Part shown: one piece after another, positions 1 through 20,000 of the stretch
How the letters are laid out: each line of letters opens with the position of its first letter
How positions within the stretch are numbered: position 1 is the first letter of the stretch
Source: Pseudogymnoascus verrucosus
Taxonomy: Eukaryota
Assembly (NCBI GenBank): GCA_001662655.1
Contig: KV460220.1
DNA: 20,000 nucleotides
Direction: 5' to 3' (one strand)
Program-made: the position numbers and the translations under genes
The notes under the pieces: generated by a model
Database searches by the model: none
What the model saw: only the letters and a program-made list of their open reading frames with translations
What the model was told of the DNA's origin: nothing

Positions 1-680
1 GTAGTGAGTTAGTAATCCCCATAGTCCCCAGTAGTAGTCCCCCAGTTAGTCCCTCACTCCCCAGTAGTTTTTAGCAGTTTTACTAGTTTTCTATGTACTT
101 CCCCTACCAACAACAATACATAAACTACAAGCAGACAGAAACAAAGAGGTGACGTCCATCGTATCCACTCCAGCGGCACATCAACCTCCAAACGCTAACC
201 ACTAACCACCACACCCAACCAGTCAACCCAAGCTCTTCCAACCAAGAAACTGTAAATAGTCGCAGTATTGCGCCAGTTGCCCTTGGCTGGGGCATTGGCA
301 TTTTACATATTCCCGCACATCCCCCCCCCAGGAAAACTAACTCAACACCATCTCAAGACCTCTCTCGAACCTCTCCGACCTTCTCTTCCTTTACTACCTC
401 AAGATCTATCCTCTCGCTATATCCCCACGTCTCTCTCTCCCGCGACCACTCTATCCGCACTCTCCGTCATTCACGCCACTTGGAAACGACCCACCGTGCT
501 TTCACACCGTCATCGTCTCACTTTTTGGCGCTTAAGACTACGAACAAAGGCCACCCTTTGAAAAATAACCTCCAAAACCGAACAAGACCCTGAGAAGACC
601 CGGAACCCTGGATTTCTACACCTAGACAAAAAAAGACACCACATTCGTTTATAGCTCAGAGATCACAAGATATGGTCACC

Positions 681-3600
681 ATGGCCAAAAACCGAGGTCA
701 GTCCCGCACATCCCGCCCTCACATCACACCACCCCCCAAAAAGTGTTCTCCCCACTAACGTGTCCCCCCCCCACCAACAGTGCTCTCGTTCATGTCGAAC
801 TTCTCGAACCGCGACTCCCGCAGCTCGAAAACGCCCTCGCCGCCCGGAGACACTATCCCCTTCCCGTCCTTCCCGGAGAAGCCGGAGCAGCAGCAGCAGC
901 AGGATGTTTACCGCTCGAGGTCGCCGCAGCGCGGACCCCAGCAACCTTCGAATATTAGGGGCTCGCCCACACGGCGCGAGCAGGTGCAGCGGAATCGCGC
1001 AAACTCGAGGCCGATATCTATGGTGCAGACATACCAGCCGCCGCTGATGGAGTTGGGGCAGGATACGCTGCCGGAGCTGCAGCCGGTGTTTACGTACCTG
1101 AATAGCCATAGCAATAAGCTGTACCAGGAGGGGTACTTTCTCAAGCTCGATGATCAGAATTCCCGTATGTTCTCTTTTTTGTTTATTTTTTATTTTTTAT
1201 TTTGGGGTTCAAGGATGAGGGAATAGAGTGCTGACCCCCACGCGTGTAGAAGGGAAGCCAAATTTGGACAGGACGTGGACGGAATGCTTCGCGCAGCTTG
1301 TCGGGACGATCTTGTCGCTCTGGGATGCGGCAGAGCTGGATGCTGCGGGATCAGAGGGCGAGGTTCTGCCAAAATTCATAAATTTGACAGATGCCTCTAT
1401 CAAAATGGTACGTGGTCCGAGCATCCGCCCAACAGCAAATTCTCACATTATCACACAGATCGAGTCGCTCCCCACGAGATCGAATGACGATCAGCCCCTC
1501 AATAATGTTCTCAGTATATCGACGGCAGGTAAGAACAGGTATCTGCTGCATTTCAACTCGCACCACTCCCTATTGCAGTGGACCGCTGGTATCCGCCTGG
1601 CCATGTTCGAGTACGCTACCCTGCAGGAGGCGTACACGGGCGCGCTGATCGCTGGTAAGGGCAAGTCCCTCAACAACATCAACATCATCCTGGCGCGATC
1701 GACATTCAAGTACGAGGACTGGGTCCGCGTGCGATTTGGCGCTGGTACGCCATGGAGACAGTGCTGGTGCGTCATCACACCACCGGATGAGAAGGAGGTG
1801 CACAAGCTACAGAAGGACTTCAATAAGAAGAAGTCGGCGTATGACCGCAGCAGGCCGCCCGTGGTGAAGGGCGATATTAAGTTCTACGAATCGAGGAAGG
1901 TTACGAAGAAGTCAAGGCCGATCGCGTCTATTAGTGATGCGTTTTCGGCCTTTGCGATTTACCCCCAGTCTAAGGCGCTAATTGAACCGTCAACCTTGAT
2001 AAAGCTCGAGGGTATCATTACGATTCACTCAGACCCGCCGACGTCTACAGAGGGCTTTGTTTTTGTTATGCCAGAGGTGCACGCTGCTGTTAGCGGTTTT
2101 GAGATCATGCTGAGATGGCTCTTCCCGGTTTTCGACACTTTCGCGCTATACGGAAGACCTGACCGGTTGGTCGCCGATACGAACGACACGAGGAGTTTGA
2201 TGTTCGCCATGCCAAATGAGAGGCGCTACGGCTACCTTGACGTTCTTGATGTCGCCGCTTTGATCTCGGCCGAGGGAAGCCAGAACTGGAGTGAGGGTGA
2301 GTGGAGGCGGAGACTGAAGGATTCTACTGCGAAGCGCATGGTTGCCATCAGCCAGAATGGCGGCAGCAGGCGCGGCAGCAGGAGAAATACATTGAGGGAT
2401 GGCTTTAACGACAGGGCATCTATCCGCTCCAACCCATCCATTTCATGGGGTCCGCCACCAGTTGACGTCCCAGCTCCACGCACAGACTCTGCCCCGCCTC
2501 TGGAAGGCCCATACCCGCCATATCCGTCAGCCACTCAGGCACAACACCACTCACGCTCAGCCTCCGAGGGCTTCCAGAACGGCTTCCCCCTCTACGAAGG
2601 ATCCGACGTCCCCCCCGCGCCCCCACCACACAGCTCCGGCCTCCGCCACGAATACGACGCGACCTCCCCACCCGAACCGACCTACCACGAGGAGGACCAC
2701 TCCCCCAGCGCCCCCGCACAAGAGCTCCGCGATCTCCAGCTCAGCCCCGGCGGCGTGGAGCCCGTCTCTCGCCCCCCCGCCTTCTCGCACGCGCCCGGCT
2801 CGCTCCCGCCGTCCGCGAAACTGCAGAACTCGCCCGAGCTGCGGCGCGCCAAGAGCCGCATGTCGAACGGGACGCTGTCGCAGTTTGCGGGCGCGGGAGG
2901 AGCGGCGGCCACGCAAGGGGTCGCGCAGTACCGCGCGGGCCTGGAGGAGATGCGCGTCGCTGATGAGACGAGGAGGGGATTGCCAAGAGGAGTACATGCC
3001 GCCGACGACCCTACCCCTGGGATGAATGCTAACATGGCTTCTGGTGCTGAAGGAGTGATAGTGGGAGGTAATAGACTCTCTTTCGAACGGCACCCGGAGG
3101 CGCTGCAGATGCGGGCTCCGGAGGATGCGGGTGCAGCGCCGTTTTATAATCCTGTCGACAACACCGCTCAGCAACCACGCACTGCCGTCCGGCCAACCGT
3201 CATCGTACCTGCGTATCCGCCACCGTACATCCAAGAACACGCTCAAACTCCATCTGAGGACAGACCCGGCTCGCAACCCCGCAGTGCAAACCGCAACAGT
3301 CTCCAGCGCAAGCCACTTCCAGCCGGGACCCCAGTAACGCCAATCGGGCCTCTGACGCGCGACCCTATCTCTCCTGGTGGAGCATCGACAATCGGCAGCC
3401 TGTACATGGACCAAGAGGCCTTCGACAGCATCCAGCCGCGTGGAAACCAGCCCGGGGACCCCGTTGCTCGACAAGCCACGAACCTAAGTCACGTCAGCGA
3501 GACGAGCAATTACACCAACTCCCCCACCGAAGCGCCACCAATCGACCAATCCGTCCCCGCACGCACGGCCTACGATCGACCCCGCAGCGGGATGATGCGC

Positions 3601-4557
3601 ACCGTAGGCGGTTACGGCGATTCCACCCCCAACACCCCCTCCGACATCCCAAACATAGATTTCGGACCAACCATCAACTACGCCGCCACCACCAACCCGC
3701 TCGCCAAACCCTCCGCACGCACAGACAATCCCCAATATCAACCACAAACCCAATCTCAATCTCAACCCCCACAACCACCCACCCACCGCGGACAAACCCA
3801 CGCCAAGCAACCATCCCGCACCCTCGCCTGGGCACCAGGCATGACATCCCCCCTCCCCTCCTCCCCCGGCGGCCTCACCCCCGAAGAATTCGTCGCCCAA
3901 CGCGCCGCCGCCGCCGCAGTCGCACAAGGCCACGCGCGCCAAGCATCCGCAAGCACCCTACGCGCTAATACCCCCACTCCCCCGATCGGGACAGGAGGAG
4001 GTCGACCCGGACACGTGCGGAATAACTCCTCCTTCGACGCTCTCCAGCGCGAGGCCGCGAGACCGTCTAGTCGTGGTGCTGGCGCGGCGCTGGGGGGGTT
4101 AGTGGGCACGATTGATGCGAGGGAGCGGGAGAGGAGGGAGGTGGTTAGGGGGGTTAATAGCCAGGGTGTTCTTCATGCTATGGGGCAGAGGGTTGTGCAT
4201 GGGCAGGGACAGGCGGTTAGTCCGGGGGGTAGAGCGGTTAGTCCGGGACCTGGGCCGGCGTATGGACAGCCTGGGCCGGGGAGGGCGCAGAGTCCGGGGC
4301 CGATGGGCGCGTATGGGCAGGGGAGACATAGGTCGCATAGCCCCGGGCCGAGGGTGGCGTATGGACAGCCGCAGGGAAGAGCACAATCTCCTGGCCCGAT
4401 GGGGGCGTATGGACAGCCTCAGCAACGCAATCAGAGCCCCGGGGGGATGGGGGTGTATGGCCAACAATCTGCCCCTGGGTTGCCGGTGACGTATCAGCAG
4501 CAGCAGCAGTACTTCCAGCAGCAGATGGGTCGTGGGAGAGGGGGGTTTAGAGGGTAA
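681..4557 (+). CDS. Skg3/CAF120-like tandem PH-domain protein with a long disordered Pro/Ser/Gln/Gly-rich C-terminus. Exons 681-696, 781-1164, 1250-1407, 1459-4557.
   Basis: Splicing gives MAKNRVLSFMSNF...YQEGYFLKLDDQNSQGKPNLDRTWTECFAQLVGTILSLWDAAELD...ASIKMIESLPTRS. Motifs YQEGYFLKL, LSISTAGKNRYLLHF, AIRLAMFE-like GIRLAMFE and EDWVRVRFGAGTPWR are typical of fungal Skg3/Caf120 PH proteins. Introns 697-780, 1165-1249 and 1408-1458 all have GT..AG ends and consistent phase. An alternative in-frame ATG lies at 672. Confidence 0.88.
4210..4470 (+). repeat. Imperfect coding repeat, about 5-6 copies of (G)RAQSPGP(M)GAYGQ(PQ), in the PH-protein tail
   Basis: Translation reads QAVSPGG RAVSPGPGPAYGQPG PGRAQSPGPMGAYGQ GRHRSHSPGPRVAYGQPQ GRAQSPGPMGAYGQPQ QRNQSPGGMGVYGQQ. 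Confidence 0.85.
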
Positions 4558-4931
4558 ACGGACATTATAGTCAGTATGGGTGGGTAGACCTTTTTCGATT
4601 CGGGCGTTGAGGTTTTTTTTTACGATGATTATGATGAAGATTTGGATCTGGATTTTTTTTTAAATGGGGCATCGCGTGGGGGGAATGGGGGTATACGTGG
4701 GTGTGTTTTTTTGTGTTAGATTTGGGGATCTGGTTTTATGGGTTTGGAATTAGATTTGGGGGGGGGGGTTGGGAGTGGGCGTTATTGTGTGTATGTATGG
4801 GGTTGGGGCATAGATAGATGGGAATGGATGATGGATCGTTTGTTATGTTCGTGTGTCTGTTGTCTTGATAGTGATGGTGGATGACCTGAATGGATATCTT
4901 CCATTTCCAAGGCCGCAGCTAACAACTCCAG

Positions 4932-5914
4932 CCGCCTTCGTCGTCCCTGATTTCATACCTCGTGATACCGTCGACATCTCCCTGTTGAACACCCAAACCC
5001 TCGTCAAGTTCTCGCACTTCTTCAACGAAACGCAATTCCTCCACAATCTCCGCTTAGGCTGCCCCGAAATGGTTGTCCACGCCACCCTTCCCCCCACCGT
5101 CAAGACTGACCTCATCCCCCTCCAACCGCAATCACTTCTCAAAGAAGTCTTCGCCGGCACCGTTCTTCTGCACGCCGAGCAGTGGCGCCCCGCTTTTGAC
5201 AAGTGGCTCGACGCCGTTCCCAACAAAGGCAAGCCGGCCGCCGTCGAGCTCGCCACCCCGCTCCTCAACTTCCCCTTAAAATACGACACTCAAGCCTTCA
5301 CCGACAACTTCGGCCGCATTCTACGGTTCCCCGAGCCGCAACGACGTCTCGCAGCCACGGCTCTGTACACGTTACGCACGAAATACAGCGTCCCAGTCGG
5401 CCCGTGGGAAATCACTCCCAACGCCTTTTTCGGCGCGCATTTGCGTGTTGCGGCGGATGCTAAGAAAGCTGGTTGGACGGGCTACGACGTGCAATCAAAG
5501 TTTCTCCTTGAGACTGCCGAGGCGGCGAGGTTGTCGACGGTGTATGTGACGAGCGAGTCGACGCTGGCGGCGGAGTTTAAGAAGGCTGCGAAGTTGAAGA
5601 ATATAATGGTCGTTATGAAGGAGGATCTGCTTGAGGGCAAAGACCTGGAGGAGCTGAACAATATGACGTGGGATCAACGCGGGCTGGTGGATTATGAGGT
5701 GCTGCTCCGGAGTAGCATGTTTGCAGGTATTGAACTGAGCAGTTTTGCGTGGAATATTGCGTTGAGGAGACATACACTTTCGAGGCAGAAGTATCGGGCT
5801 GCGTGGGATACAAATGTGAAGGATGGTGAAAAGCTGAGTATGAAGGATGAGTACAGTATGTTGTTTGGGCAAAAGCATGGCCGTGAATTGTTTGTGGAGA
5901 GTATGTGGCCATAG
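4932..5914 (+). pseudogene. GDP-fucose protein O-fucosyltransferase-family (GT-B) glycosyltransferase. Only the final large exon is present, so it is probably 5'-truncated; it could still be translated from ATG 4874.
   Basis: Family motifs FFGAHLRVAADA and LVDYEVLLRSSMFAGIELSSFAWNIALRR are present. A branch site plus acceptor (gctaacaactccag) ends at 4931. No upstream exon encoding a TM anchor or GGxGN motif is visible in the ~350 bp back to the previous stop codon. Family confidence is higher than pseudogene confidence. Confidence 0.6.
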
Positions 5915-11214: not shown

Positions 11215-14200
11215 CTATTGTTCTGCCGCACCATGTGCAAGAAGGAGATCCATGATGTCATCCTCATAACAATTCTGTGCAGCCTTTAGGGCGCTCCCAT
11301 ACTTACCTCCTTTAGCATTGACGTCAGCCCCATGTTCTAAAAGGAGCTTGACTACTTCTTCTGAACCGTATGGTGATGGTGATGCTGCTGCCTGTAAGGC
11401 AGTGCCATAGAATCCGCCTTGGGCGTTGACATTAGCCCCATGATCTAGAAGCAGCTTGACAATGTCTTCTGACCCCGTTGTTGCTGCTGCTTGTAAAGCA
11501 CTTCCAAGGTGTCCACCTTCAGCGTTAATATCCGCTCCATGTTCTAGCATGAGCTTGATAATGTCCACCAATCCTCCTGAAGCTGCTCCTTGTAAGGCAT
11601 TGCCGTACTCTCCGCCTTTAGCGTTGACGTCGGCCCCCTTTTCTAGTAGCAGCTTGACTATTTCTACAGAGGCCCAATATGATGATGCTGCAGCTTGTAA
11701 GGCAGTGCCATACTTTCCACCTTGAGCATTAACGTCAGCCCCATGCTCTAGAAAAAGTTTGACTAATTTCTCTGATCCATCCCTTGCTGCTGCTTGTAAG
11801 GCATTGCCATACAGCCCGCCTTGACACTTAACGTCCGCACCCCGTTGTAGAAGTAGCTTGGCTACCCCTTCTTGTCTACAGGCTGCTGCTGCTTGTAGAG
11901 CAGTGTCAAATTTTCCACCTTGCGCGTTAACATTAGCACCCAGCTCTATGAGTAGCTTTACTATTCCTTTATTTCCAGAAGATGCTGCCCCCTGTAAGGC
12001 GTTGCCATACATTCCACCTTGAGCATTAACATCTGCGCCTAGCTTTAGAAGGAGTTTCACCATTTCTTCTGATCCGCTTTGTCTTCCCATTGCTGCTCCT
12101 TCCAATGCATTGCCATAGCCTCCATCTTGGGCGTTGACGTCAGCCCCATATTCTAGGAGAAGCCTAACTATTTCTTCCCTCCCCCTACACGCTGCTGCTT
12201 GTAAGGCATTTCCATGATATCCACCTTGACCGTTGACATTAGCCCCAAGTTCTAGGAGCAGCCTTATTACTTTTTCTGAGCTAGAACATGCTGCAGCATG
12301 TAAGGCAGTTTCACCATATCTACCTTGGGCGTTGATGTCAGCCCCCTGTGATATAAGAAGCTCCACTATTTCTTCTGAGTTTCCATGTAACGCAGCTAGA
12401 AGGGCAGTGTGATAATGTCCACCTTGAGCGTTAACATCAGCCCCATGTTCTAAAAGGAGCATGACTATCTCTTCTTGTTGGCCTAATGATGCTGCTGCTT
12501 GCAGGGCGTTGCCAAAATACCCACCTTGCGCATTAACATCTGCTCCCCGTTGTATAAGCAGCTTGATTATTTTATCTCCGCCATGATATGCTGCAGCTTG
12601 AAGTGGGCTACCAAAAGAACCTGGCGCTTTGATTAGTTGACAGTTGATCTGAGCGTCAAGTTGCTTAGTATCCAATTCTTTCAAGTAGAATGACAAAACC
12701 CGTTGATATCTATTTGCAGAGATGTAATACACAGGATTTGCTGAATAAGGATCCGGATTGATCGATGGATGGTAAGAATACGTCAATCCGATGTGACACA
12801 TCCGTATCATGCTAAGGAAGCTGTCCGTGTTTGGTTTAAGGGCAAGAAGCACCTTCTCCTTTAACGGAAGCGTCCAAAGCTCCTCATCAAGATCTTCCAT
12901 ATGCTCCGCCCAGTATGAATTTGCGTACTTCCAGATAGGGAAAAGCTTCTGGTAGTTGTCTTTCGTTACGTCTTTAACTTGGCTAGCGTATAGATGGTAG
13001 CAAATACAGGACTCGGCCATAAAATGGTTTGCTTCATCTTTGTGCAACGCATATCTTGAGACTTCTTCTATTGGATTTAGTCTTAGATTAGTTGAAAAGA
13101 GAAACTCCTGGACCGAAAAATGCGAGAACTTAATCCACAGCCTATATCCAACATTGCCGCGTCGGACTTGCTCTTCCTCACGAAGCAAGCCGGGTAGCAA
13201 CTTCAGCAATCCTTTTGGTTTTTCAAGCCCTTTCATTCTTTTTCGTGGATCAAATGGAGATTCTGCCCTTGGGTCAATGACTGCTGCTTCGGCGAGCATT
13301 TTGGGACTTAATGGTTCCTTAGACATTGCGATCCATAGAAGAATTCGATAGACTATTGGATAATACCGAGAGTCAATACTCTTGAGCATACGGATATACG
13401 TCTCGTCAAGACCTTGTGGCAAATTTGCCAGGAGTTTAGGTATATCTTCCCCTAGACTATTTTCTATCTCGATAAGCTGAAGGGCTACATATTGAAACCT
13501 GAACTTAAATTAGTGTTCTGTAACAACTATAGAAACATTTCATATACGTACATGCCATCGGCCTTCTCAAGCAACAAACTCCTTGCGAGTGTCTTTGTGT
13601 CATCCGACATGTTGTCAAATTCGGGAGAATCGAGCTTCTGCTGCAAATAGATATCCATATCGTGGTTCACTGCGTCACGAAATTCAAACAGATCGATCTT
13701 CTCTTCTGAAGCAAGAGGCATTCTATCCAAGGCAGCCTCGATATCTGGCTCTTTCCGGCTCGTAACAAGAATATGCACGTTAGGGGGTGAACATTTTTGA
13801 AGCTTGACCAAACTTTTCATCAAAGTCGCTCTCGTACTTTTCGACGTTGTACACTCATCTAAGGCGTCGATAATTAAGTAGACGGCGTTAAATCCCTCGA
13901 CTGCGTTCCATAGTGCACCCTCAAGATGCTCTAGCGTAGGACGAGCCCCTTTATCTCGGAAAGTAGACCCTAGGTTATTCAGCCAGGCTGGGCTGTCTGG
14001 TCTTGCTCCACACAGCTGTCTTATCATTGAGCTGAGCATTCTAGATGCGTCTTGTTCCGGCTGCTCAGTGAAGCTGAAGTAGTAGTAAGCAAGCGCTTTA
14101 TATGGCGAATTTTCACAGGAGCCTGTAAGGCTGTGAATCGCAGGGGCGCTACATGTATGGTCAGCTATATCGATTGTAAAAGCTAATAATACGATTGATA

Positions 14201-16669: not shown

Positions 16670-19616
16670 ATGGAACCTGGCGAATTGGAGAAGCATACTA
16701 CGAATGAGGACCTGTTGGGTGGTATCTTGGCTACCCTCAAGCCTGTCGAACTTCTCTTGTCTCAGCAGAACCACCCCCGCCCTTCTGGTCTATCCGAGGA
16801 CAGCGCCCACGATTCCGGAGATGCAGAAAGACACAGTGACAGAGAAGATGATAAGAACGAAGGGCAAAGCGGCAATGAGCAAGAAGGCGAGGGTGGAGTA
16901 AACGAGGAAAATCAAGAAGACGAGAAGGAAGCAGACGATGCGAATCAAGCAGACGAGAATGAAGCAGAAAACGAGAACCAACAACATGACGACGAAGCAG
17001 AAGAGTGGACTTCTTGGGGAAGAAAGGGCGATGTAGAAAGTGTGGCGGAGCCTGCCATGTCTAATATCGCAAATATGCCCGAATTTGGGGAGGTTATTGG
17101 ATTTGGCGACAGAATACCGCATAACCCAACTTACCCCTTGCTATTTAGCCAGGCCTTCCTGGAGGGATTTGAACCAGACGAGGTAAAACGTAGAATAGGG
17201 GTTATTGCGAAATATTTAGAAACAGTATCACAGTTGGACGGTTTGGTGAAGCTTGATATTATTGATTTCCCAATAGTGGACGAGTTGTACAACACACGTT
17301 CCGGTACAATACGTAAGTCATTAGTCGCCATCAACGATTATCCTACTAATCAAATGAAGTTAACAATAATCTTCATCCTAAATATGAAGGACAAAAATGC
17401 CCTATACAATATTCTATGGCATGGTTTTGGGTTAACGAATCTACAAAATATCACAGGATACTGTCTGAATATTACCCTACTTTAAGATCTCACCACTGAC
17501 TTTGTGTAGCCGGTTGGAAGGAGCCTCTGAAGTGGCTAAGAAGATTAAGTCCACGTTTGCTCACGAGATTTGCCCTTTAATTTTTTCACGCCCGAATATT
17601 TGGAGTTACCATCTTATCGACGTAGTTGATCTCCATATTGAATGTGCAGAACGGCGCAGAAGTATTAAACGTGTTGTTGTCTTGGGCGGATATATATTTC
17701 ACACGACGTTTTTCCAACTATGCCAGTCGCATACTGAGTCAGATTCCTGGTCTACTGGTCGTATATATTCTATTAGCGATTTTGGTGGGAAACTGTTCAG
17801 GAAAGCATGCATTACAGTGAGATGAAAGCAAAATAACATATCCCATGAAGCCGTGGCTTCATGGGATATGTTATTTTGCTTTCATCTTACAAGACAATCT
17901 AACTCTGTTAATTAGATTCATTTTTCTCGAGAAACTCGACAGACAGGAGGCAGATGGACTATAACTATATTAGCACCATCAAATTTCTATGGTAGTGGCG
18001 ATCATATTCAATATTTGCGCTTTCCTGCCGTATACGGTAGCCATGTGATAGATACAATGATGGAGGTGATCACCACAGCCGTCAACATCATTGTTGATCA
18101 TTGGCAGAAACTCTACGATGAAGTTCAAAAAGAATGTGATGGCGAAAACATCAGTTTTATGGATGGCGAAAAATATGTGCATCTGCTATACGACGACAGC
18201 AATTTTCGGAGATCTAGATTCTACTTCTGGGCTATTGGATGTTTGAGTTCATTTGAGCAAAGCGTAGCAGAGACGTTGTGGGAACTATCGATGTTTCGAA
18301 CAGAAGCTCGCGAGAAGGTCGAGCGTCGTAGGGGGGTGATCGCTAGAAGTGAAAAAGTCGAAGCAACCTATCAGCAAGCGATAGATGATTTCGATCAAGC
18401 CTACAAGAATCTTGATGGCATTCGTGATCAGCTAGTGAAGAAGCGGGACGAGATGAAAGTATTGCGAGATGGGGTATGTCTCCAAATAAGTAATTCTCTT
18501 GAGACTCGGGCGACTCAAAAGTCCTTCTGGGGTAGGGATTGTGCCGCGCAACCGATCAAATCCTAGAGTGTATAATTTTAGAAATTATACTATCTACCCA
18601 GCAAACCCCTATGGAATTTTTTGGGCCGGACGAGTACCGCGATTCTCCAGCTAACTATTCTAGCTTTTTAGTGCAAGCGGCGTCATGGAAAGCCGGCAGT
18701 CTCGAATTCTTGGAGAGAACGTTCAGCTGCTGGCTTTCGTGACAATATTCTTTCTTCCCTTAGCTTTTAGCGCAGTAAGTGGCTCATTTTATCTTTTTAT
18801 ACAAATACTAAACAATCTAGTCACTGTGGAGCATACCTGGCGTTAATGAGAAATACCCTGGAATCGTGATACCAGGCGCATTTGCCGCTATCATCGGTTT
18901 CATCACCTATTTCATCGTATTCAATTTGAACCTACTCATATCAGGGCTTCGGCGCCTGTTTTCTGTCCCCCGCAGTATTCTACTGGCGAGGATGGCGAAT
19001 GAAAAGGATAATTCAAAATACGACTCAGAAGACAACCCACAAGGCGATCCAGAGGGTAGCTCAGTAAAAAACACGACGAGTGCACGGAGCTCAGTGAACA
19101 ACTCAACGAATGTACGCAACTCAGTGAGCAACTCGATGAGGGAAGTCGGATCAGTAAACAACTCAAGACATGAGGGCAGATCAGTGAACAACTCAATAAA
19201 TGAGGGCAGCTCAGTGAATAACTCAACAAATGAAGGTGGCTCAGTGAACAATTCTACGAGGGAGGGCAGCTCAGGGAATAACTCACGGATTGATGGCAAT
19301 GGAAAGAAGAAAATAATTGTGGTAAATGACAAATTATCTACAGATTGGCCAAAGAGGGCCAAGGCTTTTGAGGTATTCCCACGCCAAGATGAGGGACCTA
19401 GACCCTCAAACTGGCTGCTTCTTTTTTACGCCATTCGATTACTTGTTTTAAAAACCTTTGATCTTATCATTGGTTTTTTGGCATGGCTTCGGGAAGTTAT
19501 TGCATCTGACCCCTCAAACCAGGTAAGTAAGCTAAGAATAAAACAAGAAACATCTGATTAACAAGTCACAGGATCCCGATACTGAAATGGCAAACCGCCC
19601 TACACCCAGAAGGTAG
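16670..19616 (+). CDS. Atypical CorA-like membrane protein, ~822 aa. Exons 16670-17312, 17360-17462, 17510-17816, 17916-18473, 18664-18774, 18821-19522, 19572-19616.
   Basis: Six introns give a continuous frame. The donor at 17463 (gtctga) is weak, and the last intron is optional (unspliced stop at 19561). It has motifs typical of fungal CorA-like proteins: LLYDDSNFRRSRFYFW, a long helical stalk, RDGLFSASGVMESRQSRILGENVQLLAFVTIFFLPLAFSASLWSI (TM1) and AFAAIIGFITYFIVFNL (TM2). The N-terminus is acidic and low-complexity. Confidence 0.8.
17817..17890. repeat. Near-perfect palindrome within intron 3 of the CorA-like gene
   Basis: 17820-17852 (agatgaaagcaaaataacatatcccatgaagcc) is the exact reverse complement of 17855-17887, with a 2-nt spacer. 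The stem extends to 17817/17890 with one G-T pair. Confidence 0.97.
19052..19291 (+). repeat. 30-bp coding minisatellite, 8 copies, encoding EGSSVNNSTN-like decapeptides
   Basis: Units: EGSSVKNTTS ARSSVNNSTN VRNSVSNSMR EVGSVNNSRH EGRSVNNSIN EGSSVNNSTN EGGSVNNSTR EGSSGNNSRI. Confidence 0.95.
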
Positions 19617-19867: not shown

Positions 19868-20000
19868 CAGTGTTGCCCGAGTACTACTCAGAGTACTACT
19901 CAGAGATCTTCGAGTAGAGTACTGTTTTTTGGGCTCGAGTAGAGTAGTACTCGAGTAGTACTCGAGTACTACGAGTACTACTCGAGTATAAAAATGAAAA
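19868..20000. mobile_element. Probable terminus of a TIR DNA transposon (hAT-like) with subterminal GAGTACTACTC / TACTCGAGTA repeats, running off the window
   Basis: Sequence switches abruptly at CAGTGTTGCCC into a dense cluster of direct and inverted gagtactactc/ctcgagta motifs. CAGTG starts and short subterminal repeats are common in hAT elements. The other end is not visible. Confidence 0.45.

Follow-up and report, generated by a model that had tools for sequence, protein, structure and literature searches.

How does a short fungal intron come to consist, over about three quarters of its length, of a near-perfect hairpin that starts at its own 5′ splice site? The question is raised by a 20,000-nucleotide (nt) stretch of Pseudogymnoascus verrucosus DNA (GenBank assembly GCA_001662655.1, contig KV460220.1; hereafter the window, meaning the whole stretch analyzed), in which a 99-nt phase-0 intron of a CorA-like gene lies on the plus strand at positions 17817–17915. 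Comparison of this intron with its counterparts in close relatives makes it likely that one recent template-switch mutation in this lineage gave rise to the hairpin by turning a quasi-palindrome into a perfect palindrome. The hairpin probably harms splicing, and nothing indicates a selected function.

The intron and its hairpin

The intron starts with GTGAGA, contains a CTAAC motif and ends in TAG; it amounts to 33 codons with two in-frame stops. When protein P0001, a Pseudogymnoascus protein of 94% identity, was aligned to the window by tblastn, the alignment skipped the intron and read KACVT/IHFSPETRH (the slash marks the junction), with a gap of exactly 33 codons at 17817–17915. In the same type of search P0003, P0006 and P0008 read FRKACITI and then enter a variable stretch. 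These alignments match the 99-nt in-frame intron and the KACIT/IHFSR junction proposed in an earlier note on this DNA, which was made from the sequence by a model. They support the in-frame junction KACIT/IHFS without proving splicing, the models of the homologues being predictions themselves.

A repeat search, run also on the whole window, revealed two inverted-repeat arms of 36 nt each (17817–17852 and 17855–17890) that are 97% complementary and separated by a 2-nt spacer. The lone mismatch is located at 17819, where the left arm has G and the reverse complement of the right arm has A; in RNA the two bases form a G·U pair. The palindrome occupies the first 74 nt of the intron, with its stem beginning at intron base 1, and is followed by a 25-nt tail. 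Folded as RNA, the 99-nt intron gives a 35-pair stem with a 4-nt loop and −58.2 kcal/mol, as compared to a mean of −15.3 kcal/mol for shuffled sequences (z −13.5), and none of the 200 shuffles was as stable. The 74-nt palindrome (17817–17890) folded as DNA gives −36 kcal/mol (z −16.5). A 32-nt arm pattern with up to three mismatches allowed matched the two arms and nothing else in the 20-kb window, with 0.00 matches expected by chance. The palindrome is far beyond chance. Repeat search and RNA fold agree with the proposal of the earlier note that the hairpin takes up intron bases 1–74 and covers the GTGAGA donor.

The same proposal placed the branch site and the terminal AG just outside the stem, and this is where they are found. 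CTAAC is a branch-site consensus, and the putative branch site of this sequence on the plus strand at 17899–17903 is 9 nt from the stem and 11 nt from the AG (17914–17915) and is not paired with the stem in the RNA fold. Read on the minus strand, the right arm opens with GTAAGA, a detail already pointed out and confirmed by the sequence. The pentamer TTACA, which stands at 17812–17816, is repeated at 17887–17891.

Origin of the palindrome

Four public sequencing runs were found to hold words of the window: X1 (0.96), which is possibly from the same sample as the window, and X2, X3 and X4 from other organisms (0.40, 0.37 and 0.21, respectively), referred to below as relatives B, C and D. Among 20 listed runs, none that contains the stretch was on record as RNA. 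Contigs of all four runs were compared with the window over 17600–18150. For relatives B and C, one contig each (21,271 and 3,550 nt) crosses the whole of this interval; they differ from the window by 17 and 19 letters, respectively, and both miss 24 letters, all of them inside 17824–17850. The introns of B and C, rebuilt from the contig comparison, are identical, 75 nt long and unstructured (−9.5 kcal/mol, z +0.7). The orthologous intron of both relatives is a form that lacks 24 nt of the left arm, and not the one of about 62 nt that the earlier note had expected upon removal of one arm. For relative D the contigs end at 17787 and resume at 17945, so that its intron is uncovered. A 19-nt exon/donor pattern, used to look for more relatives in metagenomes, returned five loci, all of them chance matches of about 20–32 nt without flanking homology.

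Window and relatives have in common the first 7 nt of the intron (GTGAGAT) and its last 65 nt, save two substitutions (17854 T>C and 17879 C>T). As many as 72 of the 99 nt of the window intron, including both copies of TTACA, are already found at the same site in the relatives, and the difference reduces to 3 nt in the relatives vs. 27 nt at 17824–17850 (plus strand) in the window. These 27 nt match the reverse complement of 17857–17883 exactly, and the identity extends further, to 17824–17852 vs. 17855–17883. They are flanked on the left by the donor heptamer GTGAGAT (17817–17823, plus strand), the same in the relatives, which pairs at 6/7 positions with ATCTTAC at 17884–17890 (plus strand); the latter is part of a 36-nt 3′ stretch identical in window and relatives. 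The two heptamers would be the older left and right seeds of the inverted repeat. The whole right arm (17855–17890, plus strand) is present in B and C with one substitution, 17879 C>T, and would be older intron sequence that served as the template of the copy. At the center of the palindrome (17851–17856, assigned to neither strand) the window has CCGTGG, whereas in X2 and X3 the change 17854 T>C gives a perfect CCGCGG.

The same comparison bears on the idea, raised in the earlier note, of a miniature inverted-repeat transposable element (MITE) or introner family. A small foldback element or an introner-like insertion could account for a compact palindrome that resembles terminal inverted repeats, carries splice signals and has TTACA at both borders. 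Yet those 72 nt are already in the relatives, with the complete right arm and TTACA at both places, only 27 nt are new and these are copied from neighboring sequence, and the 20-kb window holds no further copy. As the element is not present or absent as a whole at the orthologous site, such an insertion was excluded, and we give it next to no probability.

For the template switch we propose the following course. The ancestral state would have been an ordinary, unstructured 75-nt intron, in which the donor heptamer GTGAGAT was complementary at 6/7 positions to ATCTTAC, located some 50 nt downstream. A nascent strand with GTGAGAT at its end would, during replication, have annealed to the complementary heptamer, copied 27–29 nt of the wrong strand back to the CCGCGG center, and then returned. 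Three nucleotides would in this way have been replaced by 27, with a 36-bp near-perfect palindrome arising in a single step. Both classic and four-point models of template switching have been described (PMC5453318), template switching makes perfect hairpins in single events, most of them in host-gene introns on the sense strand (PMC10710096), and inverted-repeat expansions are reported in yeast (PMC13100816, PMC8604942).

A four-point switch-and-return fit over 17777–17955 accounted for each of the 24 gap letters as well as for the replacement of 3 nt. It left five mismatches, which are the point differences at 17793, 17854, 17879 (counted in the source and in the copy) and 17948. In the relatives homology is found at both switch points, that is, the 7-nt seed GTGAGAT/ATCTTAC (6/7) and CC(G) at the return point. 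The only arm mismatch, 17819, sits, as expected of a primed copy, in the older seed and outside the copied part, and the G-C pair formed by 17828 and 17879 indicates that the template had C at 17879 when it was copied. The earlier note had suggested a recent fold-back inverted duplication of the 5′ end of the intron. Our results agree with a recent local inverted copy but point to the opposite direction, with the left arm new and the right arm, which is found in the relatives, older.

The difference between window and relatives could also be read backwards, with the palindrome as the older state and with relatives that lost most of the left arm when 27 nt were deleted and a filler of 3 nt took their place. 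Palindromes are unstable and fragile in eukaryotes, which speaks for such a loss, as does the fact that the three-way comparison is unrooted; moreover, a fit in the reverse direction needs just a deletion and a trivial 3-nt patch. Against it, the deletion would have taken the interior of one arm only and spared the center of the palindrome, no direct-repeat microhomology is seen at its ends, and it would have had to stop exactly at the 7-nt seed. The sole arm mismatch is among the outermost 7 of the 36 positions, for which the chance is about 0.19, as the gain model predicts. We find a gain in the window quite probable and a loss in the relatives improbable, because in the forward event one templated copy covers every changed letter, with homology at both switch points, whereas the reverse needs three unexplained letters.

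Contigs of run X1 bear on a further explanation, namely that the palindrome is an assembly or sequencing artefact, a fold-back chimera in a strain that really has the 75-nt intron. The X1 contigs do break inside the palindrome, with one ending at 17849 and the next starting at 17858, and none of the listed pieces spans the center. However, in X1, an independent contig set, one contig runs from the left exon into 33 nt of the left arm and the other from 33 nt of the right arm into the right exon; both are identical to the window, and no X1 contig takes the 75-nt path. The breaks are located exactly where 31-letter words lose the arm-specific bases 17819 and 17888, and a word-graph assembler with this word length would be expected to break there at a true palindrome. 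If X1 is indeed the same sample, it checks the assembly and not the DNA. We consider an assembly artefact unlikely, the probability of a fold-back chimera being, in our estimate, very small. The possibility of an assembly fold-back, mentioned in the earlier note, is countered at the junctions of both arms with their flanks, which X1 supports, but not at the center.

A separate cluster of differences was seen in the exon downstream, where seven differences to the relatives lie within 23 nt (17999–18021). Three of them (18004, 18006 and 18012) raise the complementarity of 18003–18014 to 17635–17646 from 8/12 to 11/12. This could mark another, smaller template-switch patch at a distance of 356 nt, or be a matter of chance.

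Predicted effect on splicing and comparison with known systems

In the fold model, positions 1–8 of the donor are unpaired with a probability of at most 0.003 in the window vs. about 0.4–0.7 in the relatives, and by inspection of the sequence no usable alternative donor was seen between the stem and the AG. The stem is predicted to bury the 5′ splice site in the pre-mRNA and to sequester the donor, with poor access for U1 small nuclear RNA (snRNA) and retention of the intron as the expected outcome. Retention meets an in-frame TGA at 17823–17825 on the plus strand, where the open reading frame 17469–17825 ends with KACITVR followed by the stop; the V-R-stop reading agrees with the earlier note. 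As translation would stop after two codons, the protein would lack its C-terminal CorA-like membrane part, and the allele of what seems to be a weakly constrained gene would be hypomorphic or null. Short artificial hairpins placed over splice signals reportedly inhibit splicing in yeast, to go by the title of a 1993 study of Goguel et al. Stronger predicted pre-mRNA structure at intron-exon junctions reduces splicing in yeast (PMC10726166).

The host gene seems, from the differences between its orthologues, to be under weak constraint. In the compared exon parts, the coding exons of window and relative B differ by eight nonsynonymous and five synonymous changes; in relative C (run X3) a C>T change at 17937 turns CGA into TGA in the exon frame, and the orthologue may be a pseudogene; and in an upstream intron, described in the next section, the best donor is out of phase with the acceptor in front of a conserved exon segment. 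In a gene so weakly constrained a damaging mutation could persist.

Several points weigh against a recent template switch that damages splicing. At 11 positions the window differs from all of X2, X3 and X4; four further ones are common to X3 and X4, and another four are particular to X2. On this unrooted three-way split (window, B, and C with D) one loss in the ancestor of B and C is as cheap as one gain. The eight central bases of the palindrome (17850–17857) are uncovered by the listed contigs of X1, which is possibly the window's own sample. The impairment of splicing is predicted from the fold; U1 could bind during transcription, ahead of the synthesis of the right arm, or the stem could be opened by helicases. 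Finally, the open exons of the window are undamaged and the gene is not visibly dead.

A hairpin that is functional, or is becoming so, would act as a splicing off-switch or as a 3′-tailed mirtron-like precursor of Dicer-made small RNAs, i.e. microRNA-like RNAs (milRNAs). Consistent with such roles, the start of the stem coincides with the splice donor and the 25-nt tail carries the branch site; intronic template-switch hairpins have seeded primate microRNA (miRNA) genes (PMC10710096), and generic miRNA-precursor models score weakly on both strands of the intron. The Rfam search of the intron gave 15 matches at E ≤ 1 on both strands, none of them at the gathering threshold (the best with 40.1 bits vs. 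140), and the whole window gave no match at gathering. Scores so far under the threshold, and on both strands, are what any long hairpin gives. The arm has no other match in the 20-kb window. As the hairpin is missing from the two nearest relatives, there is no conservation and no covariation is possible; an evolved regulatory hairpin would likewise hold a splice signal in its stem, but here the structure is not conserved in B and C. We regard a function as quite improbable, and none of the results supports the off-switch or the small RNA that the earlier note had inferred. The more specific idea that one template switch gave a newborn 3′-tailed mirtron-like hairpin together with a lock on the splice donor, gating the host gene or feeding fungal RNA interference, is a long shot; if true, a fungal regulatory RNA would have been caught as it was born, at age zero. 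We know of no mirtron pathway described in fungi. A thermosensor was rejected, as a stem of −58 kcal/mol would not be expected to melt at physiological temperatures.

The template switch that we prefer as the origin of the hairpin resembles mutations known as Ripley quasi-palindrome correction and the four-point events of Loytynoja and Goldman (2017, PMC5453318), in that the exact reverse complement of neighboring sequence takes the place of a short stretch. Also shared are priming at an older imperfect inverted repeat and the cluster of an indel and mismatches that appears in a linear alignment. What differs is the size of the stem, large for the class, with 27–29 nt copied and 36 bp engulfing the 5′ splice site of a 99-nt fungal intron; its polarity comes from the parsimony of the mechanism and not from an outgroup. 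The hairpins of miRNA genes in Monttinen, Frilander and Loytynoja (2023, PMC10710096) belong to long mammalian introns, where they keep clear of the splice sites, and are backed by small-RNA evidence, whereas the one studied here fills three quarters of its intron, covers the donor and is seen in DNA.

Hairpins that sequester 5′ splice sites, among them the artificial ones of yeast and the stem-loop at the 5′ splice site of murine leukemia virus (MLV; PMC2794156), likewise have the donor inside the stem, so reduced access of U1 snRNA is expected here too. Those hairpins are experimentally shown or evolutionarily kept, whereas this one is lineage-specific, much longer and of predicted effect. 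With 3′-tailed mirtrons (PMC4556696) the intron shares a hairpin whose 5′ end is at the 5′ splice site and a tail with branch point and AG; yet mirtron biogenesis needs prior splicing, which the stem should hinder.

The mutation is of a known kind, and the locus is a clean and unusually large instance of it over a splice donor rather than a new kind of system. It offers a clean natural comparison of before and after: very close relatives, which would be one mutational event apart, have the intron either with a 36-bp stem on the donor or without it. It is also a ready-made test of how much structure at the 5′ splice site a short fungal intron tolerates. With the origin proposed here, it shows that template switching can produce large perfect hairpins in fungal genes. 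For annotators it is a caution that a hairpin that looks designed can be an accident without a history of selection.

The host gene and other features of the window

By homology, the host gene is probably that of a distant CorA-like membrane protein. Its exon upstream of the intron (17626–17816, plus strand; start at 17510 in an alternative model) ends in FRKACIT and was placed by tblastn of P0001, P0003, P0006 and P0008 together with junction trials. The downstream exon (17916–18473, plus strand) begins with IHFSRETRQTGGRW and ends in LRDG. A search with this exon gave 11 homologous proteins, all from Pseudogymnoascus (Leotiomycetes), with E values from 1e-110 to 1e-41 and P0001 as the best (94% identity). 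A precomputed CorA-like domain (PF01544) is present on 5 of these 11, and a search made without a word index related 284 library proteins to the exon at E ≤ 0.001. When homologues were scanned with Pfam, PF01544 scored 28.0 bits on P0003, 25.8 on P0001 and 21.5 on P0006 vs. a gathering cut-off of 27. The scan of the window's single exons, as distinct from the spliced protein, gave no CorA match and nothing meaningful. The toxic effector for which the earlier note had imagined an off-switch was rejected, since the gene seems distantly CorA-like and nothing in it indicates toxicity.

Sequence and tblastn place other introns of 190, 46 and 46 nt in the host gene, and an ambiguous one upstream (17313–17625). 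The phase of its consensus donor, GTAAGT at 17313, does not fit the acceptor at 17509, after which follows a conserved segment, still open, that reads LEGAS...HEICPLIFS (17511–17621). It does fit the acceptor at 17625, the one used in the P0001 model, with which the conserved segment is left out; a weak donor, GTCATT at 17317, would hold this segment in frame. The C-terminal tail of the same gene contains a 30-nt tandem repeat (19058–19285, 7.6 copies) that encodes a Ser/Asn-rich decapeptide similar to SVNNSTNEG.

Other repeats were observed elsewhere in the window. Tandem arrays with a 99-nt period lie at 11383–12345 (4.8 and 2.3 copies, 67–73% matches), which suggests 33-residue protein repeats in a neighboring gene. 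Tandem and inverted repeats of GAGTACTACTC form a nest at 19869–19994, among them a perfect inverted pair of 17 nt; judging by its length (2,038 nt), the X1 contig that starts at 17858 should end near this nest. The first part of the window (1–5000) is high in G+C (0.52–0.63), with a GC skew that ranges from −0.36 to +0.33, and the rest of the window has a G+C of 0.41–0.48.

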